A DNA stretch of 64,000 bases from Escherichia coli (GTDB lineage Bacteria; Pseudomonadota; Gammaproteobacteria; Enterobacterales; Enterobacteriaceae). A program made the translations under genes and the position numbers. This document shows positions 1 to 26,382 of this stretch, in pieces (the first letter of the stretch is position 1; each line of letters begins with the position of its first letter). The DNA lies in the NCBI RefSeq assembly GCF_009931435.1, contig NZ_CP043414.1, one strand, 5' to 3'. The notes under the pieces are model-generated. The model was not told the DNA's origin, did not search any database, and saw nothing but the letters and a program-made list of their open reading frames with translations.

Positions 1-9
1 AAACATCCC

Positions 10-1309
10 TTACACTGGTGTGTTCAGCAAATCGTTAACGGCATCAGATGCCGGGTTACCTGCAGCCAGCGGTGCCGGTGCCCCCTGCATCAGACGATCC
101 AGCGCAGTGTCACTGCGCGCCTGTGCACTCTGTGGTGCAGCTGCCAGAATGCGGCGGGCCGTTTCCACGGTCATACCGGGGGTTTCGGCCAGCACGCGTG
201 CCTGTTCTTCGCGTCCGTGAGCCTCCTCACAGTTGAGGATCCCCATAATGCGACTGTTTTCTGCCGCAACCGCTGCGGTGATCTGCGCGTTCACGTCCGG
301 CTGCGCCGCGCTGGCGTTCTCGCCCTCCGTCGCTTGCACCACGCCAGTAACGTCAGCCTGCGAAGCAGTGGCTGAAACAGTTGTTGATTGAGTCTCTTTG
401 GTCATTCGCCCTCCTGAGAGACGGGATTTACGTGCATCCAGTGCATCACGCATGACGGTGATCGCATCGGTACTGTTAACAAGTTCATCAGCCAGTCCGG
501 CATCAATGGCCTCCTGACCGCTGTACACTGCAGCCTCGGTATCCAGCACAGCCTGCACGGACAGGCCGGTATATGCCGACACCTTCTGTGCAAACATCCG
601 GCGGGTTGCATCCATCCGGGACTGCAGTGTTTCCCGGACATCATCCGGTAGATGGCTGTAGGGGTTGCCATCCACCTTATGGCTGCCGCTGTAAATCAGC
701 GTGATTTCCACGCCCTGTTTCTCCAGCGCAGCACCGTAATTACTGTGAGCCATCATGACGCCGATGGAGCCTGTCCGGGCGGTCTGCGTGACCAGACGTC
801 GGGAGGCGGCGCTGGCAAGCAACTGACCTGCACTGCAGTTCATGTCGTTGGCCAGCGCCCATACCGGCTTTATGTCACGCACACGGGCGATGATGTCAGC
901 GCAGTCAAATGCCCCTGCCACCATCCCGCCTGGCGTATCCATATCGAGCAGAATGCCGTCCACCATCGGGTCGCTGGCAGCCTGTTGCAGACGGGCGATA
1001 ATGCCGTTGTAACCGGTCATCCCCGAATACGGCTGCAGCGCCCGTGTCCGGCTGACCAGCGTGCCGGAAACCGGCAGCACGGCGATGCCGTTCATGACCT
1101 GATAACTGCGGGCCTGTCGTGGTCCGTCATCATCAACGGATAACGCCAGCGCCGCGGGTGCCTCTCCGGCAGTCAGGCTGTCGCCGGATACCGCATCCGT
1201 CAGGCGGCTGATCCCAAGCTGGCCTGCAAGCGCACAAAAGAAAACCCGCGCATAGGCGGGTTCAAGCATCAGCGGCTCATTAAAGGCCATACTGGCAATA
1301 TGCGGGAGA

Positions 1310-1329
<20 letters not shown>
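10..1329 (-). CDS. C: Head maturation protease / minor capsid protein C (S49 ClpP-like), with in-frame scaffold Nu3 region
   Basis: Translation matches lambda gpC N-terminus (MTAELRNLPHIASMAFNEPL...) from a GTG start at 1329; the ORF-track ORF extends upstream to 1464. Confidence 0.85.
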
Positions 1330-5010
<3,681 letters not shown>

Positions 5011-5036
<26 letters not shown>

Positions 5037-5556
5037 TCAGCAACCCCGGTATCAGTTCATCCAGCGCGGCTGCTTTGTTCATGGCTTTGATGATATCCCG
5101 TTTCAGGAAATCAACATGTCGGTTTTCCAGTTCCGGAAAACGCCGCTGCACCGACAGGGGGATCCCGTCGAGAATACTGGCAATTTCACCTGCGATCCGC
5201 GACAGCACGAAAGTACAGAATGCGGTTTCCACCACTTCAGCGGAGTCTCTGGCATTTTTCAGCTCCTGTGCGTCGGCCTGCGCACGCGTAAGTCGATGGC
5301 GTTCGTACTCAATAGTCCCTGGCTGGAGATCTGTCTCGCTGGCCTGCCGCAGTTCTTCAACTTCCCGGCGCAGCTTTTCGTTCTCAATTTCAGCATCCCT
5401 TTCGGCATACCATTTTATGACGGCGGCAGAGTCATAAAGCACCTCATTACCCTTGCCACCGCCTCGCAGAACGGGCATTCCCTGTTCCTGCCAGTTCTGA
5501 ATGGTACGGATACTCGCACCGAAAATGTCAGCCAGCTGCTTTTTGTTGACTTCCAT
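5011..5556 (-). CDS. nu1: Terminase small subunit (Nu1 homolog)
   Basis: 181 aa ORF starting MEVNKKQLADIFGASIRTIQNWQEQG (HTH), lambda Nu1-like; immediately downstream of cos. Confidence 0.9.
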
Positions 5557-5745
5557 TGCTCATTCCACGGACAAAAACAGAGAAAGGAAACGACAGAGGC
5601 CAAAAAGCTCGCTTTCAGCACCTGTCGTTTCCTTTCTTTTCAGGGGGTATTTTAAATAAATACATTAAGTTACGACGAAGAAGAACGGAAACACCTTAAA
5701 CCGGAAAATTTTCATAAATAGCGAAAACCCGCGAGGTCGCCGCCC
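5557..5745. other. cos site: cosB region plus cosN 12-nt cohesive-end sequence (aggtcgccgccc at 5734-5745, reverse complement of GGGCGGCGACCT)
   Basis: Sequence 5701-5745 is the reverse complement of the lambda left end; 5746-5766 matches the lambda right end. Confidence 0.85.
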
Positions 5746-5944
5746 CGTAACCTGTCGGATCGCCGGAAAGGACCCACAAAATGATAATAATTATCATCTA
5801 CATGTCACAACGTGCATCTACGCCATCAAACCACGTCAAATAATCAATTATGACGCAGGTATCGTATTAATTGATCTGCATCAACTTAACGTAAAAACAA
5901 CTTCAGACAATACAAATCAGCGACACTGAATACGGGGCAACCTC

Positions 5945-6139
5945 ATGTCAACGAAGAACAGAACCCGCAGAACAACAACCCGCAACATCCGCTTTCCTAA
6001 CCAAATGATTGAACAAATTAACATCGCTCTTGAGCAAAAAGGGTCCGGGAATTTCTCAGCCTGGGTCATTGAAGCCTGCCGTCGGAGGCTAACGTCAGAA
6101 AAGAGAGCATATACATCAATTAAAAGTGATGAAGAATGA
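5945..6139 (+). CDS. ylcI: Small RHH-like protein (YlcI / DUF3950 family), lambda right-end ORF
   Basis: 64 aa ORF adjacent to cos, basic N-terminus; resembles recalled YlcI. Confidence 0.6.
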   Translation: MSTKNRTRRTTTRNIRFPNQMIEQINIALEQKGSGNFSAWVIEACRRRLTSEKRAYTSIKSDEE

Positions 6140-6303
6140 ACATCCCGCGTTCTTCCCTCCGAACAGGACGATATTGTAAATTCACTTAATTACGAGGGCA
6201 TTGCAGTAATTGAGTTGCAGTTTTACCACTTTCCTGACAGTGACAGACTGCGTGTTGGCTCTGTCACAGGTTAAGTAGTTTGAATGATTAGCAGTTATGG
6301 TGA

Positions 6304-6510
6304 TCAGTCAACCACCAGGGAATAATCCTTCATATTATTATCGTGCTTCACCAACGCTGCCTCAATTGCCCTGAATGCTTCCAGAGACACCTTATGTTCT
6401 ATACATGCAATTACAACATCAGGGTAACTCATAGAAATGATGCTATTAAGCATATTTTTTACACGAATCAGATCCACGGAGGGATCATCAGCAGATTGTT
6501 CTTTATTCAT
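6304..6510 (-). CDS. ybcW: Hypothetical prophage protein (YbcW-like)
   Basis: 68 aa ORF, AT-rich, in the K-12 DLP12 ybcW position. Confidence 0.5.
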
Positions 6511-6795
6511 TTTGTCGCTCCATGCGCTTGCTCTTCATCTAGCGGTTAAAATATTACTTCAAATCTTTCTGTATGAAGGTTTGAGCACGTTGGCCTTACA
6601 TACATCTGTCGGTTGTATTTCCCTCCAGAATGCCAGCAGGACCGCACTTTGTTACGCAACCAATACTATTAATTGAAAACATTCCTAATATTTGACATAA
6701 ATCATCAACAAAACACAAAGAGGTCAGACCAGATTGAAGCGATAAAAACGATAATGCAAACTACGCGCCCTCGTATCACATGGAAGGTTTTACCA

Positions 6796-7206
6796 ATGGC
6801 TCAGGTTGCCATTTTTAAAGAAATATTCGATCAAGTGCGAAAAGATTTAAACTGTGAATTGTTTTATTCTGAACTAAAACGTCACAATGTCTCACATTAT
6901 ATTTACTATCTAGCCACAGATAATATTCACATTGTGTTAGAAAACGATAACACCGTGTTAATAAAAGGACTTAAAAAGGTTGTAAATGTTAAATTCTCAA
7001 GAAATACGCATCTTATAGAAACGTCCTATGATAGGTTGAAATCAAGAGAAATCACATTTCAGCAATACAGGGAAAATCTTGCTAAAGCAGGAGTTTTCCG
7101 ATGGATTACAAATATCCACGAACATAAAAGATATTACTATACCTTTGATAATTCATTACTATTTACTGAGAGCATTCAGAACACTACACAAATCTTTCCA
7201 CGCTAA
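6796..7206 (+). CDS. ybcV: DUF1398-family prophage protein (YbcV-like)
   Basis: 136 aa from the internal ATG preceded by GGAAGG; the track ORF starts at 6673. Confidence 0.55.
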
Positions 7207-7496
7207 ATCATAACGTCCGGTTTCTTCCGTGTCAGCACCGGGGTGTTGGCATAATACAATACATGTACGCGCTAAACCCTGTGTGCATCGTTTTTAATTA
7301 TTCCCGGACACTCCCGCAGAGAAGTTCCCCGTCAGGGCTGTGGACATAGTTAATCCGGGAATACAATGACGATTCATCGCACCTGGCATACATTAATAAA
7401 TATTAACAATATGAAATTTCAACTCATTGTTTAGGGTTTGTTTAATTTTCTACACATACGATTCTGCGAACTTCAAAAAGCATCGGGAATAACACC

Positions 7497-7790
7497 ATGA
7501 AAAAAATGCTACTCGCTACTGCGCTGGCCCTGCTTATTACAGGATGTGCTCAACAGACATTTACTGTTCAAAACAAACAGACAGCAGTAGCACCAAAGGA
7601 AACCATCACCCATCATTTCTTCGTTTCTGGAATTGGGCAGAAGAAAACTGTCGATGCAGCTAAAATTTGTGGCGGCGCAGAAAATGTTGTTAAAACAGAA
7701 ACCCAGCAAACATTCGTAAATGGATTGCTCGGTTTTATTACTTTAGGCATTTATACTCCGCTGGAAGCGCGTGTGTATTGCTCAAAATAA
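7497..7790 (+). CDS. bor: Bor lipoprotein (serum-resistance outer-membrane lipoprotein)
   Basis: 97 aa, MKKMLLATALALLITGCAQQ lipobox, near-identical to lambda Bor. Confidence 0.95.
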   Translation: MKKMLLATALALLITGCAQQTFTVQNKQTAVAPKETITHHFFVSGIGQKKTVDAAKICGGAENVVKTETQQTFVNGLLGFITLGIYTPLEARVYCSK

Positions 7791-7821
7791 TTGCATGAGT
7801 TGCCCATCGATATGGTCAGCT

Positions 7822-8295
7822 CTATCTGCACTGCTCATTAATATACTTCTGGGTTCCTTCCAGTTGTTTTTGCATAGTGATCAGCCTCTCTCTGAGGGTG
7901 AAATAATCCCGTTCAGCGGTGTCTGCCAGTCGGGGGGAGGCTGCATTATCCACGCCGGAGGCCGTGGTGGCTTCACGCACTGACTGACAGACTGCTTTGA
8001 TGTGCAACCGACGACGACCAGCGGCAACATCATCACGCAGAGCATCATTTTCAGCTTTCGCATCAGCTAACTCCTTCGTGTATTTTGCATCGAGCGCAGC
8101 AACATCACGCTGACGCATCTGCATGTCAGTAATTGCCGCGTTCGCTAGCTTCAGTTCTCTGGCATTTTTGTCGCGCTGGACTTTGTAGGCGATTGCGTTA
8201 TCACGGTAATGATTGACCGCCCATGACAGGCTGACGATGATGCAGATAATCAGAGCGGATATAATCGCGGTTACTCTGCTCACTGTTGCCCCCAC
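7822..8295 (-). CDS. rzpD: Spanin, inner-membrane subunit (Rz)
   Basis: 157 aa, matches lambda Rz over its length. Confidence 0.9.
7881..8063 (-). CDS. rzoD: Spanin, outer-membrane lipoprotein subunit (Rz1), embedded in the +1 frame of Rz
   Basis: 60 aa ORF wholly inside Rz; lipobox VVGCTS; proline-rich C-terminus. Confidence 0.85.
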
Positions 8296-8777
8296 AAACA
8301 GACTTCACGCTCAATCTCACGACGAGTCATCAGGCCTTTCCATTGCTTACCGCCAGCGTATGTCCAGCGACGCAGCTGATCACATGCGCCTTTGATATCG
8401 CCCTGGTTTATTTTGCGAAGAAGCGTCGATGTTCTAAAATTGCCAGCACCCACGTTGTAAACGAATGAGTAAAGAGCGCCGCGCGTTGTTTCCGGTATAT
8501 CGACTTTGATATACGGGTTAATTTGTCTGGCGACAGTGGCAAGGTCTTTATTCAAGAGTGCTTTGCATTCTGCTTTGGTATACGTTTTACCGAGCATGAT
8601 GTCTTTTCCGGTGTGTCCGTGACATACAGTCCATACACCAACAATATCTTTGTATGGTATGTAGCTGACACCTTCCAGACCATCGTTACCACTTGGGCCA
8701 GTGATTAACACTGATGCTATAGCAATTGCTCCGCCACCAATAGCAGCAGCAACGGCTTTTCGTAATGATGGAGGCAT
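8280..8777 (-). CDS. rrrD: SAR endolysin (T4-lysozyme-like, GH24) with N-terminal signal-anchor-release domain
   Basis: 165 aa; Gly/Ala-rich hydrophobic N-terminus followed by a lysozyme-like domain; phage 21 R / RrrD-like. Confidence 0.9.
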
Positions 8778-8992
8778 TATTCACCTCTCGCAGCCTTGCG
8801 CTTATCTTCTTTAATCTTGAAATAAAGGTTTGTCAGGTACGTCAGCAGGCCAAATACCAGGCTACCCAGCACACCTATTGCTGCCCACTGTGAGGGAGTG
8901 ACTTTATCTAGCAGCTGTAAAAACCAGTACCCGGCACTACCTGCTGAGGTGCCATAGGCGACACCCGTTGTTAACTTATCCATGGATTTCAT
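8777..8992 (-). CDS. essD: Pinholin (S21-type holin)
   Basis: 71 aa with two TMDs, immediately upstream of the SAR endolysin. Confidence 0.85.
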
Positions 8993-9115
8993 AACCCCAC
9001 CTCGCAGACAAAGCGGGTGTAAATTGAGGGAATACTACGAAACGTAACAGACTCGGAGTCAGTGAATAACTCAGGTATTGGGTTATCAGCTAATATCGAG
9101 ACTCAAAAAATGGAA

Positions 9116-9137
9116 AAACCCGCTCGACGGCGGGTTT
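9116..9137 (-). terminator. Candidate intrinsic terminator on the minus strand between the porin promoter region and the holin gene
   Basis: 8-bp GC-rich stem (aaacccgc / gcgggttt) followed by a U-rich tract on the minus strand. Confidence 0.3.
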
Positions 9138-9564
9138 AAGCTGTGTGACGAAGTAACCACTCTTAACAGCATAACCAATTTTTTACGTACGTAAACCACT
9201 AAATGATATTTGAGAGAATGCTACCGAGTATTGAAAACACCACTACAAATACATAAGCAAATCTCAACAAATAACCAAAAAATAATTTCCAGTGTTATTT
9301 TTAGCCGGTTTAAATTGAACCTTCAAATTATAGAACACTTATAAATAACAGCCGTTAATATAAATTGGCTAATAGATTTATTTTTATTCAGCCAAGAGCC
9401 ATGAATAGGATTCGATAGAAAAAAGTTCAGATAAAAATAGAGATCTACTTCACAAATCAAACGAGAAACCAAAACTTACATCTTGAAATAATCACATTGA
9501 TTAGATGAATATTTATCGCGCAGTGACATCATTTTTTAATAATAGTTCAAAAAAAGGGCTCACG

Positions 9565-10662
9565 ATGAAAAAATTAACAGTGGCAATTTCTGCTGTAGCT
9601 GCATCAGTACTGATGGCGATGTCTGCTCAGGCAGCTGAAATTTATAATAAAGACAGTAACAAGCTGGATCTGTACGGGAAAGTTAATGCTAAGCACTACT
9701 TCTCCTCTAATGATGCAGATGATGGTGATACTACTTATGCCCGTCTTGGCTTCAAAGGTGAAACCCAAATCAACGATCAACTGACTGGTTTCGGTCAGTG
9801 GGAATATGAATTCAAAGGCAACCGCGCTGAATCTCAAGGTTCCTCCAAAGATAAAACCCGTCTTGCCTTCGCTGGCCTGAAATTCGGTGACTACGGCTCC
9901 ATCGATTACGGCCGTAACTACGGTGTAGCATACGACATCGGTGCGTGGACTGACGTCCTGCCAGAATTCGGTGGTGACACTTGGACTCAAACCGACGTGT
10001 TCATGACTCAACGTGCAACTGGTGTTGCAACCTATCGTAACAACGACTTCTTTGGTCTGGTTGATGGTCTGAACTTTGCTGCTCAGTACCAAGGCAAAAA
10101 CGATCGTAGCGATTTCGATAACTACACTGAAGGTAACGGTGATGGCTTCGGTTTCTCTGCTACCTATGAATACGAAGGATTCGGTATCGGTGCAACTTAT
10201 GCGAAATCTGATCGTACCGACACTCAAGTTAATGCAGGGAAAGTTCTTCCTGAAGTATTTGCTTCCGGTAAAAATGCAGAAGTTTGGGCCGCAGGTCTGA
10301 AATATGACGCTAACAACATTTACCTGGCCACTACCTATTCTGAAACCCAGAATATGACTGTATTTGCTGATCACTTCGTTGCTAATAAAGCCCAAAACTT
10401 CGAAGCTGTTGCACAATATCAGTTCGATTTCGGTCTGCGTCCGTCCGTTGCTTACCTGCAATCTAAAGGTAAGGATCTTGGAGTATGGGGCGATCAGGAC
10501 TTAGTCAAATATGTTGATGTAGGTGCAACCTATTACTTCAACAAAAATATGTCTACTTTCGTTGATTACAAAATCAACCTGCTTGACAAAAATGACTTCA
10601 CTAAAGCACTCGGTGTAAGCACTGATGACATCGTTGCTGTAGGTCTGGTTTACCAGTTCTAA
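9565..10662 (+). CDS. nmpC: Phage-encoded OmpC/OmpF-family general porin (NmpC-like), intact
   Basis: Signal peptide [24 protein letters not shown]-terminal ...VGLVYQF; AGGG SD upstream; no IS interruption. Confidence 0.9.
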
Positions 10663-10800
10663 TCTGATTACGAAAAAGATATGTTGCGGGAGGCGTTGCC
10701 TCCCCAACATATAAGTGGCTCCCTCAAGCCACTTCCTTTAGAAGCACAACCTTGCTTCTAACTATATAAACCTTCTGTTATATATTACCCTTTATTTTTG

Positions 10801-10824
10801 GGGGCGTCTCAACGCCCCATTTTT
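10801..10824 (+). terminator. Rho-independent terminator downstream of the porin gene
   Basis: ggggcg / cgcccc stem followed by a U-rich run. Confidence 0.5.
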
Positions 10825-10851
10825 AATAATTTTTAGTAAACAATTGGCATA

Positions 10852-11235
10852 TTAATTAGAGTTATTAACAACGATATCCATCTCTAACCGGATATCTAAT
10901 GCCATTAACATCCCTTCAATTATGCCCTCAGCCTTCTGTAACCTTTTCCCGATATAACCATCAGAGCAGCAATGCTTACCTGCCAGTGACATGAATGTCA
11001 TACCGACTACATAATAATCTACTAATAAATCGTGCAAATCGCTGTTGTTCTTTTTCAGACGGGCCATGCACCCGCAAATGATCATCGCGTCATCGTCACA
11101 ACATTGCGGGCGAGATTTTACTTTTGAAGTAATTAATCCCTTAAAACCGGCGGCAATGGACGACCAGGTCACATCTTCATGATTATTAGCCGCCCACGCT
11201 CCCCAACGCTCAAGAACCATCTGAATATCACGCAT
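10852..11235 (-). CDS. quuD: Late-gene antiterminator Q (phage 82 / QuuD type)
   Basis: 127 aa from [14 protein letters not shown]; Cys-rich zinc-binding region. Confidence 0.8.
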
Positions 11236-11320
11236 CAACTTACTCCACAAAAATCAGACCAGAACGCCAATTACAAGCAAAAATCAACAAAACAGTATTA
11301 GTTGATTGTTATCTCTGACT

Positions 11321-11458
11321 TCATACTCCTGCTCCTGTCAGGGTTTTGGCGTAATTCTTCAGTATTCGGTAATCGGTCAAAACAGAACCGGGGAAACGAT
11401 ATAAGCGCAGACGCCCCCAGCGGTGGCGAAGAAGTTCTGCCATATTAAACTCAAACAT
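11321..11458 (-). CDS. ylcG: Small prophage protein YlcG-like
   Basis: 45 aa ORF ([22 protein letters not shown]...) not in the ORF track; start overlaps the rusA stop (TGATG). Confidence 0.55.
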   Translation of the reverse strand: MFEFNMAELLRHRWGRLRLYRFPGSVLTDYRILKNYAKTLTGAGV

Positions 11459-11820
11459 CATTCATTCCCCATTTCGGTGATGGTCAGTTCCAGCCTCCCA
11501 CCTTTGGTAACAGGCATCTTCACAACGCGGTAATCAACGACCTGAGCATCATCCAGCCAGAAACCTGCTTTAGTGAGTGCGTCAAAAGCGGCTTTTTGCA
11601 GATTATCCAGGTCACGGCGACGGCGATCCGGCATGTGGCACTCAATGCGGATTTTCACAGGCATAGCCAGGCCGATATCCAGCATTGCGTTTTTAATGAT
11701 TCGGGCGACGTTATCGCGGTATGCCTGCCCCTCTGCGCTGACGTGCGTGCGCCCGCGATTATGGCGGTAATAGCGATTATTGCTCGGAGGCCAGGGTAAT
11801 GTGATGCTGTAGGTATTCAC
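11458..11820 (-). CDS. rusA: Holliday junction resolvase RusA
   Basis: 120 aa, recalled RusA homology. Confidence 0.9.
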
Positions 11821-12107
11821 GCCTTAATAACCCCCTCTTTCAGCCAGATAACCTGTGTTCTCGCCATACCTTCCAGCGCGCATTCTTTTGCATATCCAGC
11901 GTCAACAAAATGCGTGCGGCGGTCGATTTCGTCGTGGCAGGCAGAACATGCAATGGTGGCAATCAGGTCTGGCGGTTTCGTACCGGTGCCGCACAATCCA
12001 GTCAGCCGGATATGTGCCAGTACAGACGTTTCAGGGTTGCCATTACATACGCCAGGGATTCTTACCTGGCATTCCCGACCACGCGCTGCTTTTCTCAAAT
12101 CAGCCAT
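11817..12107 (-). CDS. ybcO: DUF1364-family putative nuclease (YbcO-like)
   Basis: 96 aa from [23 protein letters not shown]; Cys-rich. Confidence 0.75.
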
Positions 12108-12270
12108 GACTCCTCCTTGCTGCCAGTCGCAACCATTTTTTATCAACCAAGCTGGCGGTATATCCGAGCAGTGTTGGTATTTCGGATGGCTTCAGCTCAG
12201 GTTTACGCTTACGACGATTTGGTACTCTGTAGATGTGTCCGTTCATGACACGAATAAGCGGTGTAGCCAT
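12100..12270 (-). CDS. ninE: NinE protein
   Basis: 56 aa from [27 protein letters not shown]. Confidence 0.75.
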   Translation of the reverse strand: MATPLIRVMNGHIYRVPNRRKRKPELKPSEIPTLLGYTASLVDKKWLRLAARRSHG

Positions 12271-12725
12271 TACGCCTCCTGCTTGTCGCGCAGCAGCTGG
12301 AACTCGCAGCTCTGTGGAATAGTCAGGTGGCAACCAATATTCATCGCCCAGGCTTCAACCTTACACAGGAAGACATACATCTCTCCGGTATCAAGATCGG
12401 AGGTATGGCGTAACGACTGGATAGTGGTGATATCACCGGTTACGACATCAACCAGGTCTTTGGTTTCATAACCGAGATATGTGTGTTTGAGAGCATCTTT
12501 TACCCAAGCTGGAGTGGCGAACGTTTTACCCCTGCTGATGAGGTATTCACTGATTTCGCTGTACCACATGTGGCTGAGTGCATTCTGGGAAAGACTGCGT
12601 TTCTCACGCCACGGTTTAAGCACCATGCGAAAGCATTTGCCCTCCTCCAGATAAGGCTGGATCTGCCGACCGATAGCGGTGAAGTTGCCGCGATGTAATT
12701 TGATGCCGTCTTGTGAGAGGTTCAC
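12270..12725 (-). CDS. ybcN: NinB/YbcN-family DNA-binding protein
   Basis: 151 aa, in the nin-region position. Confidence 0.7.
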
Positions 12726-12939
12726 GCTTCCCCTCCGCAGAGGTCAAACGCTAGATGCAAAGAATTGCAGGTGCATTTCTGCATCTGTGAAGGGAGAAGA
12801 GAGTTTGGATTGTATGTGCGCATAAACGTCCCCGTTTAGCGCAGAAGTCACCGGAGTTGTTCAGGCTCCGGTGACATAATTATGCCGTGTTGATTTCCCA
12901 AAATCAAAATCGATAGAATTGCTCCTTCTTAAAACACTT

Positions 12940-13737
12940 TTACTCTCTGGAAGCTTTTCTTATCTCTCTTGGTGTTATATTAAAACGATTATGAAATCTT
13001 TCAGTAAAACGAGAAGGACACTTATAACCATTTTCTCTGGCAATCTCGCTTATAGGTTTTACCGTCGTTTGTATAGCAGACAACGCATTATTTAACCTCA
13101 CATCGTCCAGTATACTTTGGAAACTTACCCCCTCGCTTGCTAGACGGCGATGTAATGTAGAAACAGAAATGTAGAGATATCGAGCAACCTTGTTTGCTGT
13201 CCATTTTGTGCCGGGTTCGGATAGCAGCAGGTTATAACAACGACTTATCAATGATTGTTTACTATATGATAAAAGTAAATGATTAACATGATTCACTCCT
13301 AACGAAAGTAGAACGCCCATTGCTAAGTGCTCCTGAATTTTAGTTGAGAAGCCTCGGGAAACAGATGTTTTTAGTTGCTCCCAACAATATATTAACTCAG
13401 GATTCTGAGGTAAAAAGAAACTTGTTTTGTTACGTATTTGATCAGTTACCGTATAAAGTTTTTGGAAACTCTCAATTAAATCAATGGGTAAGTAAAGCAT
13501 TTCTGCAAGATAAAGCCCTGCTTCAGGATAATTCTCAATATAAAATTCATAACCACAAGGAAATAATATTATTTGATTATTATCAACAGTTAAAGTATGC
13601 GTCTCCCAATTGATAACTTTCTTTCCCTGACGGATACGACACAAAGCTGGCATAAGAGGCTTAACCCTATGAATCTCATGATGTTTATGCATCCGTATTT
13701 CTTCGATCTTTAAGTTAGTCTTACCTCTTGCCAGCAT
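12940..13737 (-). CDS. ybcM: AraC-family transcriptional regulator (YbcM-like)
   Basis: 265 aa; C-terminal AraC HTH; AT-rich codon usage. Confidence 0.8.
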
Positions 13738-13746
13738 ACTCTCACC

Positions 13747-14298
13747 CTACTTTATCTCATAAACTGGTGTTATCTCAGCGGTTGCGATTTTATTAGCATT
13801 AAGCATATAACCAACTAACGCTCCGCTGGAGTTAGAATCTACAGGAATCTTTTCAGTTTTTAGAGCCCATACTTTAAACTGGTAATGATGTGGTTTATCT
13901 CCTTTAGGAGGACATGCGCCACCAAACCCAGCATAGCCAAAATCATTTCGGCCTTGAACAGCACCAGTCGGCAGTTTTGTTCCATCACGTCTCCCTGCAT
14001 CAACGGGCAAATATGTTACTGTTGCTGGAATATTAACAACAGTCCAATGCCACCAACCACTGCCTGTAGGTGCATCTGGATCATATACAGTTACGGCAAA
14101 GCTTTTGGTACCTTCAGGAACACCAGACCAGGTTAATGAGGGCGATGTATTACCACCTTCACACCCAAATCCAGAAAAGACATGAGACGTTGTAAGTTGC
14201 TCTCCTGTTTTTATTTCATTACTAGTGACCTGAAATGCTGCAGCCTGCGCAGAAAATGTTATGAATGCCAATACAGTTGAAACGATAAGTGTTTTCAT
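13747..14298 (-). CDS. ybcL: Periplasmic PEBP/YbhB-family protein (YbcL-like)
   Basis: 183 aa with signal peptide MKTLIVSTVLAFITFSAQAAA. Confidence 0.8.
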   Translation of the reverse strand: MKTLIVSTVLAFITFSAQAAAFQVTSNEIKTGEQLTTSHVFSGFGCEGGNTSPSLTWSGVPEGTKSFAVTVYDPDAPTGSGWWHWTVVNIPATVTYLPVDAGRRDGTKLPTGAVQGRNDFGYAGFGGACPPKGDKPHHYQFKVWALKTEKIPVDSNSSGALVGYMLNANKIATAEITPVYEIK

Positions 14299-14514
14299 AA
14301 AAACCTCTTTGTTATGACCTATCGTTATTTTATTTGATATTCCTTTATCTCATTATGCATAAAGGCGCAATGTTCATGCAAAAGCAATCACAATTGTACC
14401 CCCAACCCAATTATTTGCCACAATATACACAAAGCACATTGATACTATCTAAAAACTCTGCTTTATTATTAGTAACACCTACGAAAGTCGGTGTTATTTT
14501 TTAACCTACCATTC

Positions 14515-14564
14515 AAAATACGTGACATACACCATTTTGCTCATAATAATTTGTCACGTATTTT
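14515..14564. repeat. Perfect 13-bp inverted repeat (aaaatacgtgaca ... tgtcacgtatttt) with 24-bp spacer, between ybcK and ybcL
   Basis: Read directly from sequence. Confidence 0.8.
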
Positions 14565-14762
14565 CAGTATTTGAATCTGCGACCAAGAGTTCTCACCTAA
14601 CAAATGATTAAGATTGTATAGCTCATTTACTACCCCAATACAGCCGTACAAAACTCGCTTGTGGGAGCAAACAAAGTAATTACCCATTAAGTTTCGTCAA
14701 AGATAATTAATTCTGTCTTGCACTTTATCACCATAGCATAACTTAAAATCCGAGATCATTAT

Positions 14763-16289
14763 TTAGAAATAAATCTCACCATCAACCATATATTTGAGAG
14801 CACTTATCGCCTGCTGGGCGGATATTACTTTCATTAAAGGATAGTGTTTAAAAACAATGCCATTCATAAAATAGATATCACAGGTTTTATTATCCGTATT
14901 AATTATGATTTTTTCGAATGTTTTATAGGCAAGTGTACGGCATAACTCTCGTCCATTTTTACTGGTTAAGTCAATAGCATAAAAATCACTGAATGAATTT
15001 ACACCTTTACTCTTCAAAGTTTTCAATGATACCGAAGCCCTTCGTAATTCCTTATCTAATAGTCTTATTTTCTCTGCTATAGCGGTAACTTCAGGCGCGA
15101 CAGACAATGCAACGATTAAATTATTAATTTTCATCTGAAGCTCAATAATTTTTAACTCTAAAGTTTCATTAGCATCTTTCTTGTTTTCAACTGGTTGAAT
15201 TTTGCTACAATTAAAAAGCAATTCATTAATGATATTATAATCAACCAAATCTCTTTTTATTGATGGCCTGTCACATCGATGTAATCTTCTCATCGGACAA
15301 ACATAATAGCCATGCAAACTTCCAGATACCGCATGAACAATCATGGTATTACCACAAGCCTCACACTTCATAACTGTTCGAAGTAGATTTATTAGCATAG
15401 GATTCTTGCTACTATTGCTAATACCAAAAGGTGCCAACCGAATTTCCTGTACAGCGTAAAACAAATCATCTGATATGACTCTGGGATAATAGCCAGCGAT
15501 TTCACTTATCCCTTTCCCTCTTGCACGATATGAAGGTACGCAAATACCTATCAGAGCTTTATTCGCTAATAATTTTTCAATTACAGAAGGTCCCCATGCA
15601 CTTTCTTTTCCTGAGAAATTCTTTACAGCATGATCATTTAAATACTTGGCTATTGCATTCAATGAGCGCCTTTCCATCCTGAGTTTAAAAATTAGCTCAA
15701 TAGTTTTCACCCTGTCTGGGTCTGGAACAAAAGCCGTTCTTTTGTCATCTAAGGAGAGCCATCTCGGATAAGACGCCGTCATAATCGTACCTGATTCCAG
15801 TGCATCCTGCCGTTTTTTCTTCCATGATAATTTAACCCGACTTGACTTTATCTCGCTTTCTTCATTTGCCCTTTGTGCTATAAGTATGGCTTTTATTAAT
15901 GAATATGGCTCATTCAAAGAGTCAATATTATAGACTGTATTGTCGCAAAGAGTTATAACATCAATACCGTGATTCAAAATCAATTTCAGACGTTCAATCG
16001 CTTCACCGACTTTTTCTCTTGAAAGTCTGTCCAGACTTTCAACTAACAATGTAGTTCCTGGCAATATATAACCATGCTCTATAGCATCTAAAAATTCCGA
16101 AAAAGCTCCTGATTGTGCATGCTTTCCTTTGAATGCACTTAATCCTAAATCTTCATATGTTATGGTATCAAGATAATAATCACTATTTACCTTTAACCAT
16201 TCAGCAATAAGTCTTCTCTGTCGGTTTAATGAGTCGCCAGACATCTGACCTGGTGATGAAAATCGCATATATGCTATGGCTTTTTTCAT
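14763..16289 (-). CDS. ybcK: Large serine recombinase (resolvase/invertase N-terminal domain; YbcK-like)
   Basis: 508 aa; N-terminal catalytic serine motif (AIAYMRFSSPGQ); large C-terminal domain with Cys cluster. Confidence 0.85.
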   Translation of the reverse strand: MKKAIAYMRFSSPGQMSGDSLNRQRRLIAEWLKVNSDYYLDTITYEDLGLSAFKGKHAQSGAFSEFLDAIEHGYILPGTTLLVESLDRLSREKVGEAIERLKLILNHGIDVITLCDNTVYNIDSLNEPYSLIKAILIAQRANEESEIKSSRVKLSWKKKRQDALESGTIMTASYPRWLSLDDKRTAFVPDPDRVKTIELIFKLRMERRSLNAIAKYLNDHAVKNFSGKESAWGPSVIEKLLANKALIGICVPSYRARGKGISEIAGYYPRVISDDLFYAVQEIRLAPFGISNSSKNPMLINLLRTVMKCEACGNTMIVHAVSGSLHGYYVCPMRRLHRCDRPSIKRDLVDYNIINELLFNCSKIQPVENKKDANETLELKIIELQMKINNLIVALSVAPEVTAIAEKIRLLDKELRRASVSLKTLKSKGVNSFSDFYAIDLTSKNGRELCRTLAYKTFEKIIINTDNKTCDIYFMNGIVFKHYPLMKVISAQQAISALKYMVDGEIYF

Positions 16290-16543
16290 GGTGACACCTG
16301 CTAACGTATGCTTTTATAAACCTTAGTGGTGGGATATAATTTTTGTTTATTTTTTATTTAAAAAGACAATTAAGGTCACATTATCTTGAATATACAACAA
16401 TAATCGTATTGCAATTTTCTTACGCCATAATCTTGAAAGCACAAAAGAATACATAAAAAATAAAGACATTAACAAAAAGCATAAAACGAGGCTCATATAA
16501 ATATAAGAGCCTCCATATTTTAGTCGTTTAGAAACAAATTATT

Positions 16544-16876
16544 TTAATGTGGTGTGCTTCGTGACAATAAATTAATAATCAACACACCGGCACAAATCAA
16601 CATCATGCCTATAATGGCTGGCAGGTCCAGCCGTTGGCCGAAAAATCCCCATGACAGTAAGCTAATCAGGACAATACCGACTCCTGACCAGATAGCATAA
16701 GCAATCCCTGTAGGAATATAAGCCAGCGTCTGAGCTAATAACCAGAATGATGCACAATAACAAATAATTGTACCAACAGATGGCCATAACCGTGTAAAAC
16801 CTTCTGAAAACTTCATTAAGGTTGTACCAATGACCTCTGCAAGTATTGCACCACCAAGATAAATATAAGGGTTCAT
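16544..16876 (-). CDS. emrE: SMR-family multidrug efflux transporter EmrE
   Basis: 110 aa from MNPYIYLGGAILAEVIGTTLMKFSEGF, matches recalled EmrE. Confidence 0.95.
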   Translation of the reverse strand: MNPYIYLGGAILAEVIGTTLMKFSEGFTRLWPSVGTIICYCASFWLLAQTLAYIPTGIAYAIWSGVGIVLISLLSWGFFGQRLDLPAIIGMMLICAGVLIINLLSRSTPH

Positions 16877-16943
16877 AGCATATTCTTTCCTGTTCAAACT
16901 GGAGAGAATTGTACTACAGTTTGAACTCAACTCACCTGTTTCA

Positions 16944-17246
16944 TCATTGTGTTCCCATTGATGTTCTTTTATATACCCTCAATACCCGTTTCATCGCGGC
17001 ACTCTGGCGACACTCCTTAAAAATCAGATTCGTGCTCACCTTTCCTTCCCATTCTTCTCTGGTAGCGAACCGGTAATACACCGTTCGCCAGACCTTACCA
17101 TCAACGACCAGGATTCCTGCCCGCGCCATTTTAGCCGCAGCCTGATTTATGCTGGTTACGGTTGCGCCTGTTACCGCGGCAACGTCCTGTGCACAGAAGC
17201 TCTTATGCGTCCCCAGGTAATGAATAATTGCCTCTTTGCCCGTCAT
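16944..17246 (-). CDS. ren: Ren protein
   Basis: 100 aa, MTGKEAIIHYLGTH... matches lambda Ren. Confidence 0.85.
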   Translation of the reverse strand: MTGKEAIIHYLGTHKSFCAQDVAAVTGATVTSINQAAAKMARAGILVVDGKVWRTVYYRFATREEWEGKVSTNLIFKECRQSAAMKRVLRVYKRTSMGTQ

Positions 17247-17944
17247 ACACTTGCTCCTTTCAGTCCGAACTTAGCTTTAATTTCTGCGATCTTCGCCAGA
17301 GCCTGTGCACGATTTAGAGGTCTACCGCCCATAACAGGAAGTTGTTTTACTGGTTCAGGTATCGTCTCACCACGGTTAATTCGCGCTGTCATACAGGTCA
17401 GTTCATCGGCAGCCTTGCGCCGTAATTCCGCGTCAGCCAGCGCATTGGCCCGCATGTTCTGGTACAAGTTGGTAACCAACCAGTAATGCGCGTTCGATTT
17501 CCACGGATAAGACTCTGCATCCGGATACAGGCCACGCTTCCGGCAATACTCGTAAACCATATCAACCAGCTCGCTGACGTTTGGCAGCCCGGCGTTAACA
17601 GATGCTTCTTCCCGGCACCAGGCGACAAACTGCCCGGGTGATGGCAGGAATGGTCGATTCTGCCGACGGGCTACGCGCATTCCAGCGTTAACCTGTTCCA
17701 TTGTGGTGATCCCGTTTTCCCGGAAAGCCAGAACCCACTGGCGGCGGATTTCGTTCAGTTCATTCTGGTCACGGTTAGCCAGGCTAGCCGGGAAAGTTGC
17801 CAGTAACTGGCTGAACACACCGTTGATGATCTGCGCTACCTGCTGTACCTGCGGCTTTTCGTCGTACTGTTCCGGCATATTGTTGGCGATCCGGCGCATC
17901 TGCTCACGGTCAAAGTTAACCATCTGTGCGGCGATGTTTTTCAT
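17243..17944 (-). CDS. P: Replication protein P (DnaB helicase loader)
   Basis: 233 aa, lambda P-like. Confidence 0.9.
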   Translation of the reverse strand: MKNIAAQMVNFDREQMRRIANNMPEQYDEKPQVQQVAQIINGVFSQLLATFPASLANRDQNELNEIRRQWVLAFRENGITTMEQVNAGMRVARRQNRPFLPSPGQFVAWCREEASVNAGLPNVSELVDMVYEYCRKRGLYPDAESYPWKSNAHYWLVTNLYQNMRANALADAELRRKAADELTCMTARINRGETIPEPVKQLPVMGGRPLNRAQALAKIAEIKAKFGLKGASV

Positions 17945-18870
17945 AAATCCACCCCGTAAATCCAGTCAGTGTTCGTCAGGTCGAGTTTTGGTTTGCCGGC
18001 TGTCACGCCAGCCTGTTGCTTGTTTCGGTTGATTTCGAGCTGGGTCCACTTGTCGCGGAGTTTGGCCGGACTCAGCACGTTACCGGACCAGAAGTTGTCC
18101 TGGCATGCCCAGCGGAACAGCACGCACATGTCGCGGTGGTTACGTCCGTCACGTTCACGCATCAGGCGGATATCGTTAGCCCACCCTGCAAAATTCGGTT
18201 TTCTGGCTGATGGCGCGATGGTCTTCACCATGTCAAACATCCACTCTGCGGCGGTCAGGTCTTCTGCTGTCCCCCACTTGCTGCCACTCTGAATTGCAGC
18301 ATCCGGTTTCACCACAGGAAGGTCGTTTTCTGGCTGGTCAGAGGATTCGCCAGAATTCTCGGACGAAAAAGGTTTTATATTGTCTTTTGTTAGTTTGTCT
18401 TTTGTGTTTACCTGATTCGGGTAAACGCCTTTACCTGATTTGGGTAAACTTTTCTTACCTGATTCAGGTAAATTTACCTCTTTCAGGTAAACTTTATTTT
18501 TCTTACCTGATTCGGGTAATGTTGACCATTCACTGACCACATTATTAATGCCGATATTTCGCCCGCTCTGAATAAGAATCCCACGCTTTACCAGAACGCT
18601 TTTTGCAGCAGAACACTTGTGCGGCAATATCCCGGTCAATTCGGAAAGTTGCTCGTTGCTCACCCAATCCAGTCTTTTATTAAAGCCATATGTTTTGCGC
18701 ATGACAGCCAGGAAGACCAGAAGCTGGTGCTGTGTTAATCCGGCCAGCATCACAGCTTCCAGCAACTCATTTGCAATGCGCGTATAACCATCATCGAGAT
18801 CTGCCACGCGCGGCTCCTTTTGTGCCGCATCCGGCACTGGAAAATTGAATATCTCAGCAGTGTTTGCCAT
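17941..18870 (-). CDS. O: Replication initiator O (contains ori iterons)
   Basis: Lambda O-like N-terminus; start MANTAEIFNF preceded by GGGAGG SD (track ORF starts earlier at 18960); iterons inside the gene. Confidence 0.85.
   Translation of the reverse strand: MANTAEIFNFPVPDAAQKEPRVADLDDGYTRIANELLEAVMLAGLTQHQLLVFLAVMRKTYGFNKRLDWVSNEQLSELTGILPHKCSAAKSVLVKRGILIQSGRNIGINNVVSEWSTLPESGKKNKVYLKEVNLPESGKKSLPKSGKGVYPNQVNTKDKLTKDNIKPFSSENSGESSDQPENDLPVVKPDAAIQSGSKWGTAEDLTAAEWMFDMVKTIAPSARKPNFAGWANDIRLMRERDGRNHRDMCVLFRWACQDNFWSGNVLSPAKLRDKWTQLEINRNKQQAGVTAGKPKLDLTNTDWIYGVDL
18372..18520. repeat. Origin of replication: five 18-bp iterons (ttacctgattcgggtaaa and variants) plus adjacent AT-rich tract, inside O
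   Basis: Iterons at about 18408-18425, 18431-18448, 18455-18472, 18474-18491, 18503-18520; AT-rich 18372-18406. Confidence 0.85.
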
Positions 18871-18956
18871 AATTCCTCCCGCAATGAGTGTGTTACGATT
18901 TGCACCTGAAAGTCGGTTCTGTTCCCGCAGACCGACTTTCGCCATTTCTGAACCTA

Positions 18957-19496
18957 TCATATTGCCCCCAGCATGGTGGTCACCATCGCCATTAATGGAC
19001 CAGCCAGATCCGGGTCCACACGAAACATCGACACAATACCTTCACTCATTTCCTTCAGTTTCTGGTGGCGTGGTGCGTTGAGAATGACAGCCTGTTTTGC
19101 CTCACTGAGTTCCTTTTCCATTTCAGCCAACCGAGTCATGAAGCTATCCTGCTCAACCAGGTAACCGCGATATTCCAGCGGTAGTACCGCCAGAATTGCC
19201 GGGGTCAGTTCACGCACGTTATTTCGGTATTTTTCAGAATCGAATTTGTTATCGAGGAAGCGGAACAGCTTCTGGCGTGCACGGCTGACATCATCAGGGA
19301 AATCGATGGTGCCGTCGCCCTGCTCCCGATACTCATTCACAATGAGTGCGGCAACGACATCCTGATTATCTACAGCCGACCAGGCGCGGACGGCATCACG
19401 GATTTTTTCGTGGCCTGGAGCTTGTTTTGTTTGAGAACGATTTATCACCGCAGTCGGAATAAATCCGCTAGTCTGTTGGTATGTAAGTGGTTGCAT
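18957..19496 (-). CDS. Early regulatory protein in the cII position (YdaT-like)
   Basis: 179 aa ORF between the cro-like gene and O. Confidence 0.6.
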   Translation of the reverse strand: MQPLTYQQTSGFIPTAVINRSQTKQAPGHEKIRDAVRAWSAVDNQDVVAALIVNEYREQGDGTIDFPDDVSRARQKLFRFLDNKFDSEKYRNNVRELTPAILAVLPLEYRGYLVEQDSFMTRLAEMEKELSEAKQAVILNAPRHQKLKEMSEGIVSMFRVDPDLAGPLMAMVTTMLGAI

Positions 19497-19565
19497 AATT
19501 GACTCCTTTAGTTTGAATTGACTGTTAAGTTGATTGCTTATTGTTAAAGAGCGTGAAATGGAAAT

Positions 19566-19796
19566 TTAAGCTGCGTTCTTTTCGGTGTGTGGAAACAACT
19601 TCGGAAGATCCGGGCGAATCTGGTATGCCTTCACAACTCCACCAGTAGCCGTAACAATGCTGCCGACATGTTCAGGGGATACCTTTGCTTTGTTGTGAAG
19701 CCACTTATAGACGGCCTGCTGTGAAACTTCGCAGGCATCGCCTAGTTTCTTTTGTGAACCAACGATATTGATCGCTGTTTTGATTGCTGGGTTCAT
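19566..19796 (-). CDS. cro: Cro-like HTH regulator (YdaS/Cro family)
   Basis: 76 aa, divergent from the cI gene across the operator region. Confidence 0.7.
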   Translation of the reverse strand: MNPAIKTAINIVGSQKKLGDACEVSQQAVYKWLHNKAKVSPEHVGSIVTATGGVVKAYQIRPDLPKLFPHTEKNAA

Positions 19797-19900
19797 AACA
19801 ACCTCCGTGGTTAATCCGAATCAAGATTAAAACTATGGTTGTTTTTAGTCAACAACCATTTTCGTTTGATGAAATAAAACCTTGGTTGTACATTTGATCT
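19797..19900. promoter_or_regulatory. Immunity-region divergent promoter/operator (OR-like); 9-bp-arm palindrome atggttgtt-N7-aacaaccat at 19835-19859
   Basis: Palindrome and repeated ACAACC/GGTTGT half-sites between divergent cro-like and cI genes. Confidence 0.6.
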
Positions 19901-20590
19901 ATGAAAACAACACTCTCAGAAAGACTTAAAGAAGCCAGATTAGCGCGAGGCCTTACACAAAAGGCGCTTGGGGATTTGGTCGGGGTTAGCCAGGCTGCTA
20001 TTCAGAAAATCGAAACAGGGAAAGCTAACCAAACAACTAAAATCGTGGAGATCGCGAACGCTTTGGGTGTACGCGCAGAATGGTTATCTTCTGGCGTTGG
20101 AAATATGTCAGACAGTACAGTGCAACCAATACAATCAACTGTCAGCCATTCCAAATACTTCAAAATTGACGTTCTTGATATAGAAGTCAGTGCCGGGCCA
20201 GGTGTAATCAACCGTGAGTTTGTAGAAGTTCTACGCTCGGTTGAGTACTCGTTTGACGATGCTCGTCACATGTTCGATGGCAGGAAGGCGGAAAATATCC
20301 GCATCATTAACGTGCGAGGTGACAGCATGTCAGGGACGATCGAACCAGGTGACCTGCTGTTCGTTGATATCACTGTTAAATCTTTCGACGGTGATGGCAT
20401 CTATGCGTTTCTGTACGACGACACTGCCCATGTAAAACGTCTTCAAATGATGAAGGATAAGCTGCTGGTTATCTCTGATAACAAGAGCTACTCGCCGTGG
20501 GACCCGATCGAGAAAGACGAGATGAACCGGGTGTTCATATTCGGTAAGGTCATTGGAAGCATGCCGCAGACGTACAGGAAGCATGGTTAA
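19901..20590 (+). CDS. cI: CI-type prophage repressor (XRE HTH plus S24 LexA-like autopeptidase domain)
   Basis: 229 aa; N-terminal HTH; C-terminal GDSMSGTIEPGDLLFVD peptidase motif. Confidence 0.85.
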   Translation: MKTTLSERLKEARLARGLTQKALGDLVGVSQAAIQKIETGKANQTTKIVEIANALGVRAEWLSSGVGNMSDSTVQPIQSTVSHSKYFKIDVLDIEVSAGPGVINREFVEVLRSVEYSFDDARHMFDGRKAENIRIINVRGDSMSGTIEPGDLLFVDITVKSFDGDGIYAFLYDDTAHVKRLQMMKDKLLVISDNKSYSPWDPIEKDEMNRVFIFGKVIGSMPQTYRKHG

Positions 20591-20819
20591 TTTATCTACG
20601 ACTTAAGGGAGCGAAGGTTAAGGTTTATACCACTCGGATTAGATATTGCACTAAATTCTCTATAAGAACGCCAAATCTGTTTGCATATTTCAGTAAATAT
20701 TCTCGTTGTTAGCTGAGATTTGTTGCTACTGTCAGCAAAATGTCTCCCTATCTCGTAGCGGTTTTTATTTCGAATCATTATGTTAAGATGTTTCTGATTA
20801 TAATGAATGGAAACATAAA

Positions 20820-21200
20820 ATGAGAAAAATCCTAATCGCTGCCATGATGGCATCTGTATTGGCTGGGTGTGCTTCTTCAGGCAACCAGCAACTCAAAAAT
20901 GAAACTGAAATTAGTGTCCAGTCTAAACTTCAGGAAGGTAAAACAACCAAGAATGAGGTTAAATCTTACTTTGGTTCTCCTGATGCTGTTTCATATACTG
21001 ACAGTGGAAAGGAGATCTGGAAGTACGCCTTTGCAAAAGTAAAAGTTAATGGCACCACTTTTATTCCATTCTATGGATTATTCCATAACGGAACGAACGG
21101 TACGAAAAAAGAACTTACTATTCTTTTTAACGATGACACGATTAAGAAATACACAATGTCAGAAACCCAAATAAACTCGAAATCAGGTTGGGCTGACTGA
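20820..21200 (+). CDS. Lipoprotein of unknown function encoded downstream of cI (rexAB position)
   Basis: 126 aa; signal peptide with lipobox LAGC; followed by a terminator. Confidence 0.75.
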   Translation: MRKILIAAMMASVLAGCASSGNQQLKNETEISVQSKLQEGKTTKNEVKSYFGSPDAVSYTDSGKEIWKYAFAKVKVNGTTFIPFYGLFHNGTNGTKKELTILFNDDTIKKYTMSETQINSKSGWAD

Positions 21201-21207
21201 TAATCAT

Positions 21208-21236
21208 ACCCGGCAACCGCGCCGGGTTTTCTTTTC
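21208..21236 (+). terminator. Rho-independent terminator after the cI-lipoprotein unit
   Basis: acccggc / gccgggt stem followed by tttcttttcc. Confidence 0.7.
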
Positions 21237-21350
21237 CTCCCCCTCATAACTCATACCGTCCAAAAAACCACCACACCTCACTTCAGTTATCGCTATGCGA
21301 TGCAAGTCACAAAATAAATCCATCCTAAATACAACCAGTTATATTTAAAA

Positions 21351-21404
21351 CAACCGATAAAACAACTTTTGTTGTTGACGATAAAACAACTATAGTTTTA
21401 AATA
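21351..21404 (+). promoter_or_regulatory. Candidate early-left promoter/operator (pL/OL-like): palindrome aacaac-tttt-gttgtt overlapping a TTGACG -35 element
   Basis: Palindrome 21361-21376; TTGACG at 21375-21380; AT-rich -10 candidates about 17 bp downstream; shares the ACAAC half-site with the OR region. Confidence 0.45.
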
Positions 21405-21596
21405 AATTCATCGCAACGACACAACGATACGGTAACCACCTGTTTCACCGTTGCGATGACCGCTTAGATCCGCAGTTTGAATTTCAGCAGGCTTCGGGGA
21501 GTGCGAGGGGTGAAACGGACGCGTGAACGTCGGTGTGACCAGCTGAAATCAACACAACACTTTATACCTCAGTCGCTTCAACGAGGCGGCTTAGTT

Positions 21597-21887: not shown

Positions 21888-21962
21888 TCCCCTTTCCTGT
21901 TTTCCTAATCAGCCTGGCATTTCGCGGGCGATATTTTCACAGCCATTTTCAGGAGTTCAGCC

Positions 21963-22259: not shown

Positions 22260-22264
22260 AACGG

Positions 22265-24362: not shown

Positions 24363-24460
24363 ACATGAAAAGCAAAATCATCAGGGAGCTACAGGCTCCT
24401 TTTTTATTATTCGCATTTACCCTCAAGCGTATTAACCAACAATTCAGGGATTAATGAAAG

Positions 24461-26367: not shown

Positions 26368-26382
26368 CTGATTGAATTGTAA

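Follow-up and report, generated by a model that had tools for sequence, protein, structure and literature searches.

Organization of the prophage in the window

The window, by which we mean the whole 64-kb stretch of DNA analyzed here, opens with 26.4 kb of prophage. With gene names taken from annotated relatives, the order is C-B-W-A-nohD, then cos, then ylcI-ybcW-ybcV-bor-rzpD-rrrD-essD-porin-quuD-ylcG-rusA-ybcO, continuing with ninE-ybcN-ybcM-ybcL-ybcK-ylcJ-emrE-ren-P-O-cII-like-cro, and ending with repressor-lipoprotein-kil-gam-bet-exo-...-xis-intD-argU-fimZ-sfm. All 43 prophage genes between positions 1 and 26367 are intact open reading frames, and no IS elements are present in the 26.4 kb of prophage within the window. 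The genes from Nu1 to C all lie to one side of cos:

5011–5556, minus strand: Nu1 (nohD), terminase small subunit, 181 aa, start codon at 5556; 98.9% identical to lambda Nu1
3111–5036, minus strand: A, terminase large subunit (ATPase and nuclease), 641 aa, intact; 99.5% identical to lambda gpA (T334S, E534G, V570G)
2908–3114, minus strand: W, head-tail joining protein, 68 aa; 100% identical to lambda gpW and above the cut-off of NF047331
1310–2911, minus strand: B, portal protein, 533 aa; 98.5% identical to lambda gpB
10–1329, minus strand: C, prohead protease, 439 aa, full length, with the nested Nu3 scaffold at 10–615; 97.7% identical to lambda gpC

These five genes are uninterrupted and of lambda length, with 2, 3, 0, 8 and 10 substitutions in Nu1, A, W, B and C respectively. 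The only changes in Nu1 are A75T and L132I, and its N-terminal winged-helix domain is therefore identical to that of lambda; a single residue distinguishes it from K-12 NohD. The B product matches TIGR01539 (portal_lambda) with 466 bits against a cut-off of 172.7. At the nucleotide level, window 1–5830 is 98.17% identical to circularized lambda over 5831 nt, with one gap and 106 mismatches. Because the window begins 9 nt beyond the C stop codon, genes D, E, FI, FII and the tail genes fall outside it. The preliminary description had credited the locus with a full packaging and head module and with full-length Nu1, A, W, B and C flanking cos; the five genes are indeed full length and the module runs from Nu1 to C, but they flank cos on one side only, and the head set is incomplete here, with D, E, FI and FII beyond the window edge.

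The cos site

On the minus strand, window 5557–5790 aligns unambiguously with the junction of circularized phage lambda, and a complete lambda-type cos occupies 5581–5775 (minus strand), comprising cosQ, cosN, R3, an IHF site, an inverted R2, and R1. Subsites are defined according to Murialdo & Feiss 2022 (PMC9026076), from which the 16 bp definition of cosN is taken, and Feiss et al. 2015 (PMC4669245), which describes the role of cosQ:

5769–5775, minus strand: cosQ, GGGTCCT, packaging-termination subsite, corresponding to lambda 48473–48479; its sequence and distance to cosN are identical to those of lambda
5732–5747, minus strand: cosN, nicking site, partly two-fold symmetric, identical to lambda (at the junction), flanks included
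5734–5745, minus strand: 12-nt cohesive end GGGCGGCGACCT, inside cosN; identical to lambda
5746/5745 and 5734/5733: predicted nicks in cosN, on the phage top strand and bottom strand respectively
5681–5696, minus strand: cosB R3, the critical TerS (Nu1) binding site, corresponding to lambda bp 50–65, with C53T at its edge (window 5693)
5655–5667, plus strand: I1, IHF-consensus match AATAAATACATTA between R3 and R2, corresponding to lambda bp 79–91
5622–5637, plus strand: cosB R2, CTGTCGTTTCCTTTCT, inverted relative to R3 and R1; an exact 16-mer of lambda bp 109–124
5581–5596, minus strand: cosB R1, CTGTCGTTTCCTTTCT; an exact 16-mer of lambda bp 151–166

The 25-mer GGTTACGGGGCGGCGACCTCGCGGG, in which the cohesive end is embedded, occurs once in the 64-kb window, at 5728–5752 (minus strand), and its chance expectation in shuffled sequence is 0, even with 3 mismatches allowed, so that a chance resemblance to lambda cos is rejected. 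The preliminary description had placed an intact lambda-type cos here, which is borne out on the minus strand, cosQ lying 3 nt beyond the interval it gave yet being intact. Its statement that 5701–5766 reproduces lambda exactly needs correcting, as this segment is identical to lambda (NC_001416) at 65 of 66 positions, the sole mismatch being lambda 48486 T>C at window 5762. Across 5557–5766 there are six substitutions relative to lambda (48486 T>C, 53 C>T, 73 A>G, 85 T>A, 102 T>C and 187 A>G) and one base pair is missing at lambda bp 138/139, a deletion found in lambda DE3 too. The R1-R2 spacing is 1 bp shorter than in lambda, as it likewise is in lambda DE3. No indel is seen in the alignment from cosN to R2 (lambda bp 1 to 137), and the critical cosN-cosB spacing is thus kept.

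All of these changes spare cosQ, cosN, the TerS-contacted core of R3, R2 and R1. TerS contacts R3 at bp 55–63 (PMC9026076), and these positions are unchanged from lambda in the alignment. The I1 region carries three substitutions relative to lambda; I1 itself has one mismatch to the IHF consensus WATCAANNNNTTR, as many as lambda has, with T85A falling at an N position. The C53T change in R3 is also found in K-12 DLP12 and in phage PhiR29_1. This change and those in the I1 region are presumably neutral in effect, the one ground for this being that K-12 DLP12 and PhiR29_1 carry them too. From cosQ to the Nu1 ATG the sequence is identical in PhiR29_1. The subsites stand in the order R3-I1-R2-R1 with R2 inverted and the cosN-R3 spacing that of lambda, as in a lambda-type cosB, and adjacent genes encode a cognate TerS with a matching winged-helix domain together with the large subunit, as is characteristic of a lambda-type cos. 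At the level of sequence, this site has every feature that marks membership of the lambda cos family.

Sequences of this kind are widespread in the species. A lambda-type match spanning at least 80% of the cos region (window 5540–5800) turns up in about 3980 of the 5426 complete genomes of E. coli, and 525 records among complete E. coli genomes are at least 99% identical over the lambda-type cos region, one of them 100% identical.

Regulatory, replication, lysis and integration genes

The remaining modules of the prophage are as follows:

7822–11235, minus strand: late control and lysis block (Q, S, R, Rz and Rz1)
10852–11235, minus strand: Q (quuD), intact; 100% identical to the K-12 DLP12 protein
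9565–10662, plus strand: porin gene, between Q and S, intact
8777–8992, minus strand: S (essD), intact; 100% identical to the K-12 DLP12 protein
8280–8777, minus strand: R (rrrD), intact; 100% identical to the K-12 DLP12 protein
7822–8283, minus strand: Rz, intact; 100% identical to the K-12 DLP12 protein
7881–8063, minus strand: Rz1, intact; 100% identical to the K-12 DLP12 protein
17243–17944, minus strand: replication gene P, intact
17941–18960, minus strand: replication gene O, with five ~22-nt iterons at 18403–18519
19566–21401: immunity region (cro, OR, repressor, lipoprotein gene, OL)
19566–19796, minus strand: cro, by PHROG assignment, in the immunity region
19827–19870: OR, sharing AAAACAAC..GTTGTTTT-type operators with OL
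19901–20590, plus strand: S24/LexA-type repressor, by PHROG assignment, with Ala-Gly, GDSM and KRL motifs
21355–21401: OL, sharing its operator type with OR
21681–23727, plus strand: kil, gam, bet and exo, intact
24977–25348, plus strand: xis, P22 type, 123 aa, overlapping int by 145 nt
25204–26367, plus strand: int (intD), 387 aa; 387/387 residues identical to K-12 IntD

A repressor of the SOS-cleavable type, its operators, and the replication, excision and lysis functions are all intact at the sequence level, and the earlier claim of intact Bet, Exo, Gam, O, P with iterons, repressor and integrase stands, with five iterons and a repressor of S24 type. Bet, Exo and Gam (98 aa) are 99.6%, 97.8% and 85% identical to their lambda counterparts. 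The xis product covers positions 2–117 of the 117-position excisionase profile phrog_2907 (E = 6e-46). PGAP treats xis as a pseudogene in relatives, as a 66-nt 'incomplete HTH'; we reject this reading for an ORF that is full length against phrog_2907, and the call appears to be an annotation artefact. In 434B, a viable phage, the Q-to-lysis segment of K-12 DLP12, acquired by recombination, is functional (PMC9119081).

No homologue of lambda N is present between OL and kil (20590–21680), and early-gene control therefore differs from that of lambda. The plaque-forming phage PhiR26_1 has this N-less region in common with the window prophage. A perfect rrn-type boxA, CGCTCTTTAACAA, lies at 19541–19553 (minus strand) in the nutR position, 12 nt past the cro stop codon; there is no obvious boxB hairpin near it, and the pL side has no matching boxA. 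Terminator-like hairpins are found at expected places, following the porin gene and the repressor-lipoprotein unit and lying upstream of S. With Rfam at gathering thresholds the only matches are argU and host sRNAs, and the prophage yields no phage regulatory RNA.

The lipoprotein gene of the immunity region (20820–21200, plus strand) has a predicted product of 126 aa (phrog_3135) and occupies the position of rexAB in lambda as a cargo gene, with a terminator-like hairpin after it (slot 20820–21227). In sister phages the slot between repressor and OL holds HipA, GevT/GevA or PD-lambda-1 defence cargo.

Integration at argU and relationship to DLP12

The prophage ends at a tRNA gene that marks its site of integration:

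26381–26459, minus strand: attL, including the tRNA-Arg(UCU) gene argU at 26383–26459 (ARAGORN and Rfam)
26381–26427, minus strand: 47-bp attachment-site core at the 3' end of argU

The int gene ends at 26367, abutting argU, and the 140-nt junction is 100% identical to K-12. An identical repeat of the 47-bp core forms attR between ompT and envY in both K-12 and E. coli O169:H41, an arrangement of argU and attR that agrees with that described for DLP12 by Ramisetty & Sudhakari 2019 (PMC6379469). From emrE through nohD, the characteristic DLP12 gene set and order are the same in the window as in K-12. All DLP12 segments that K-12 MG1655 retains are 99.83–100% identical in nucleotide sequence, and 18 DLP12 proteins differ from those of K-12 by 0 or 1 residue. 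The two elements share the same argU integration site and the same 47-bp core, and their cos sites are one base apart, just upstream of the Nu1 ATG. As far as sequence can tell, the element has the testable defining features of DLP12, and the preliminary placing of a lambdoid prophage at the DLP12 locus is upheld by attL at argU and by the 99.8–100% identity to the retained K-12 segments.

The differences from K-12 are largely of presence and absence. K-12 DLP12 lacks window ~17554–23448 (P to exo), ~23753–25109 (the 3' part of exo to the 5' part of xis), and A beyond its first ~300 nt together with W, B and C, all of which the window copy has. After nohD, K-12 has a 309-nt A fragment (aaaD) and then tail-fibre remnants, which bears out the preliminary statement that K-12 DLP12 is without these structural genes. 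The IS3 and IS5 insertions of K-12 are absent from the window copy, and ren and the porin gene are thus intact there. Since segments are missing from the K-12 element, IS elements have been added, and the rest is 99.8–100% identical, K-12 DLP12 is best read as a deletion and IS-insertion derivative.

The relationship to lambda itself is of a different kind. The cohesive end, cosQ, R2, R1, the order of subsites, the cosN-R3 spacing and the Nu1 DNA-binding domain are identical to those of lambda, and the packaging and head proteins are 97.7–100% identical. To the right of Rz and bor, however, the prophage is not lambda; it has S and R of DLP12/21 type, a different Q, a different immunity and no N, and it carries P22-type int and xis at argU instead of residing at attB-lambda. 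We therefore read window 5581–5775 (minus strand) as the cos of an undeleted DLP12 prophage, a lambdoid temperate phage at the 3' end of argU, and judge from the sequence that this identification is very probably correct (about 0.9).

Published work names DLP12 as the most prevalent prophage of E. coli (PMC10057817; PMC6379469). The C-to-rusA block (window 1–12000) is at least 80% covered in 1071 complete E. coli genomes, and among the 5426 complete E. coli genomes there is no 100% match to the window.

Relatives and signs of mobility

A near-identical prophage in O169:H41 has a complete structural arm from D to tfa, and its attR lies ~47.4 kb from attL, a length that fits the packaging range of lambda, about 38–51 kb. 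Over 21.2 kb (window 5363–26598) there are 11 differences between the two prophages (99.95% identity), and directly past argU the density of differences rises to 1.4–2.7%. The chromosomal flank (window 26460–64000), with sfm, folD, cysS, purEK, the allantoin cluster and ybbP, is 95–97% identical to K-12, and its best matches among the 5426 complete E. coli genomes are 97.5–98.1% identical. Going by levels of divergence within Escherichia, the host looks like a divergent lineage of the genus, which could be a cryptic clade. Because the prophage is far more conserved than the host chromosomes, the comparison indicates that it has spread horizontally in recent time, which is consistent with an active phage. 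Elsewhere in the flank, at ~61104–61797, the 7.3-kb rhsD-ybbC-ylbH-ybbD segment of K-12 is missing, with ~0.7 kb of other sequence in its place, and an Rfam match to AgrB antisense RNA lies at 61164–61252.

The C, B and A genes (window 1–4000) are only 98.1–98.9% identical to the O169:H41 prophage, compared with 99.95% for 5363–26598. This suggests a head-gene block with its own recombination history, and hence mosaicism. The exact gpC protein is found in more than 5600 blocks of the sequence collection, and the 8 loci that were read are at most 98.8% identical in DNA over the phage region; no record of the exact gpA variant was found. In a contig scan with window 1–120, only a contig of E. 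albertii NBRC 107761 matched, at 98.2% identity.

Several isolated phages are closely related. PhiR34_1 (PV340559), which is propagated on MG1655, has a complete structural arm with a full set of tail genes, and its match to the window prophage extends over 92% of window 1500–26480, with 97.8% identity. It has in common with the window prophage int, the Red genes, O and P, the emrE-ybcK-ybcL-ybcM cargo and the nin region, and further Q, the porin gene, the lysis genes, cos, and Nu1 to C. It differs in its repressor region, and its right end has a pin-type recombinase where chromosomal relatives have appY/ompT cargo. The immunity region of the plaque-forming PhiR26_1 (PV340555) is 99.6% identical to that of the window, and the cos of PhiR29_1 (PV340556), which also forms plaques, is identical. 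PhiR34_1 and PhiR26_1 jointly account for nearly all of the modules visible in the window, and no single one of the isolated phages compared matches the whole window prophage. Phages of the PhiR series serve in plaquing assays as a panel of phages related to lambda (bioRxiv 10.1101/2025.11.03.685801); in the literature we found the phages only in that use and no paper on their origin. A literature search on DLP12 with qsr and cos found nothing.

The best match to window 1–12000 is in GPEC1446, where gene E is split by an 11.7-kb island and ybcN by IS3. In several close relatives E or B is split by a satellite of ~11.7 kb (locus L001, GPEC1446 6658–18612), which is also present in the related loci L013 and L018 (both from ~11.7 kb onward) and L015 and L016 (both ~1–9.2 kb). 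Among the satellite's genes are those for a P4-type integrase, AlpA, a D5-type primase and SSB, as well as an E-like capsid gene and a D-like decoration gene of its own; in some copies there is also a Nu1-like gene, together with a lambda-type cos that is 96% identical (L018 20607–21133). The satellites correspond to the helper-embedded PICIs that Tommasini, Mageeney & Williams described in 2023 (PMC10111431); these excise upon induction of the composite element and restore the interrupted gene. In the window, gene B is intact, and gene E, one of the two insertion points of the satellite in relatives, is just off the window.

Alternative explanations

The cos might belong to a phage satellite (PICI) and not to a phage, for lambda-type cos sites are known from PICIs of Gram-negative bacteria, some of which also have Nu1-like genes. 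Since the satellite in L018 carries a 96%-identical copy of cosQ, cos and part of Nu1, cos and Nu1 alone are not diagnostic of a phage. Here, however, full-length A, W, B and C adjoin cos without a break to one side, ylcI, ybcW, ybcV, bor and the lysis genes lie to the other, arranged as in lambda/DLP12, and no satellite integrase, AlpA or primase is near it. On this gene order a PICI origin is rejected as extremely improbable. Contamination with laboratory lambda or a cosmid vector, or a chimeric assembly, has in its favor only the 98.2% similarity to lambda over 5.8 kb. That same segment has 106 mismatches, the S, R, Q, int and immunity genes are of DLP12 type, and the joins to argU and to the sfm operon are clean; with collinearity over 37 kb to chromosomal loci of many natural E. 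coli genomes, we reject this reading as well, its likelihood being negligible.

Another reading accepts the cos and head genes as intact and places the damage beyond the window, where a tail deletion, an IS element or an unexcisable insertion would leave the prophage defective. The cos would then serve only in trans, for a superinfecting lambda-type terminase, or as a reservoir for recombination. K-12 DLP12, grossly deleted, is an example of such decay, as are the split genes of GPEC1446; prophages at the DLP12 locus have been called mostly 'grounded' (PMC6379469), and the gain of DLP12 late genes by phage 434B (PMC9119081) illustrates the role of a reservoir. Against this, 43 of the 43 visible genes are intact in 26.4 kb free of IS elements, a near-identical prophage in a host ~2% divergent argues for recent transfer as a phage, and relatives with complete tail modules exist. 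Even a satellite inserted in E would not necessarily be disabling, as helper-embedded satellites excise on induction and mend the gene they interrupt (PMC10111431). We regard a defective prophage as a possibility to be taken seriously, though not as the expected outcome.

Returning to the undeleted DLP12 prophage, we lean, with some reserve, towards its being complete and inducible as judged from the modules in the window; the estimate is held at this level because the half from D to the tail and attR are outside the window. The preliminary description made inducibility depend on tail genes upstream of the window, with a second att site to be looked for there; such an upstream region is favoured indirectly by the D-to-tfa arm and attR of the O169:H41 prophage and by the shared modules of the plaque-forming phages PhiR34_1 and PhiR26_1. 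That it is a complete and currently infectious DLP12, the living form of the cryptic prophage of K-12, recently arrived in a divergent Escherichia lineage, we put at even odds.

Proposed packaging pathway

The steps of packaging are established lambda biology, and the mechanism is carried over to the window cos because the two are nearly identical. Upon induction and rolling-circle replication, Nu1 dimers would bind R3 and R2 across an I1 bent by IHF, placing gpA to nick cosN at 5746/5745 and 5734/5733, 12 nt apart. The terminase-DNA complex would then dock on the gpB portal, and DNA would be pumped in leftwards with Nu1 and A first, until cosQ and the next cosN ended packaging and left GGGCGGCGACCT as 5' overhangs. 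From this correspondence we infer that cos would be cut in the source strain.

Significance

The biology of lambda cos and terminase, the residence of DLP12 at argU, and the existence of active DLP12-like phages are already established, and nothing here is new in those respects; beyond annotation the importance of the finding is small. What it means is that the source genome holds DLP12 in undeleted form, and that K-12 DLP12 has arisen from exactly such a phage by deletions and IS insertions. If the prophage is indeed an infectious DLP12, it would presumably carry appY and ompT cargo, as in its close relatives, and would run a lambda-like early program without any N homologue. In its sequence, the locus has what cos packaging requires, which bears on prophage prediction and on the possible mobilization of cargo, emrE and the porin gene in the window and additionally appY and ompT in relatives, as well as on the mobilization of cos-bearing satellites and on recombination with incoming lambdoid phages.
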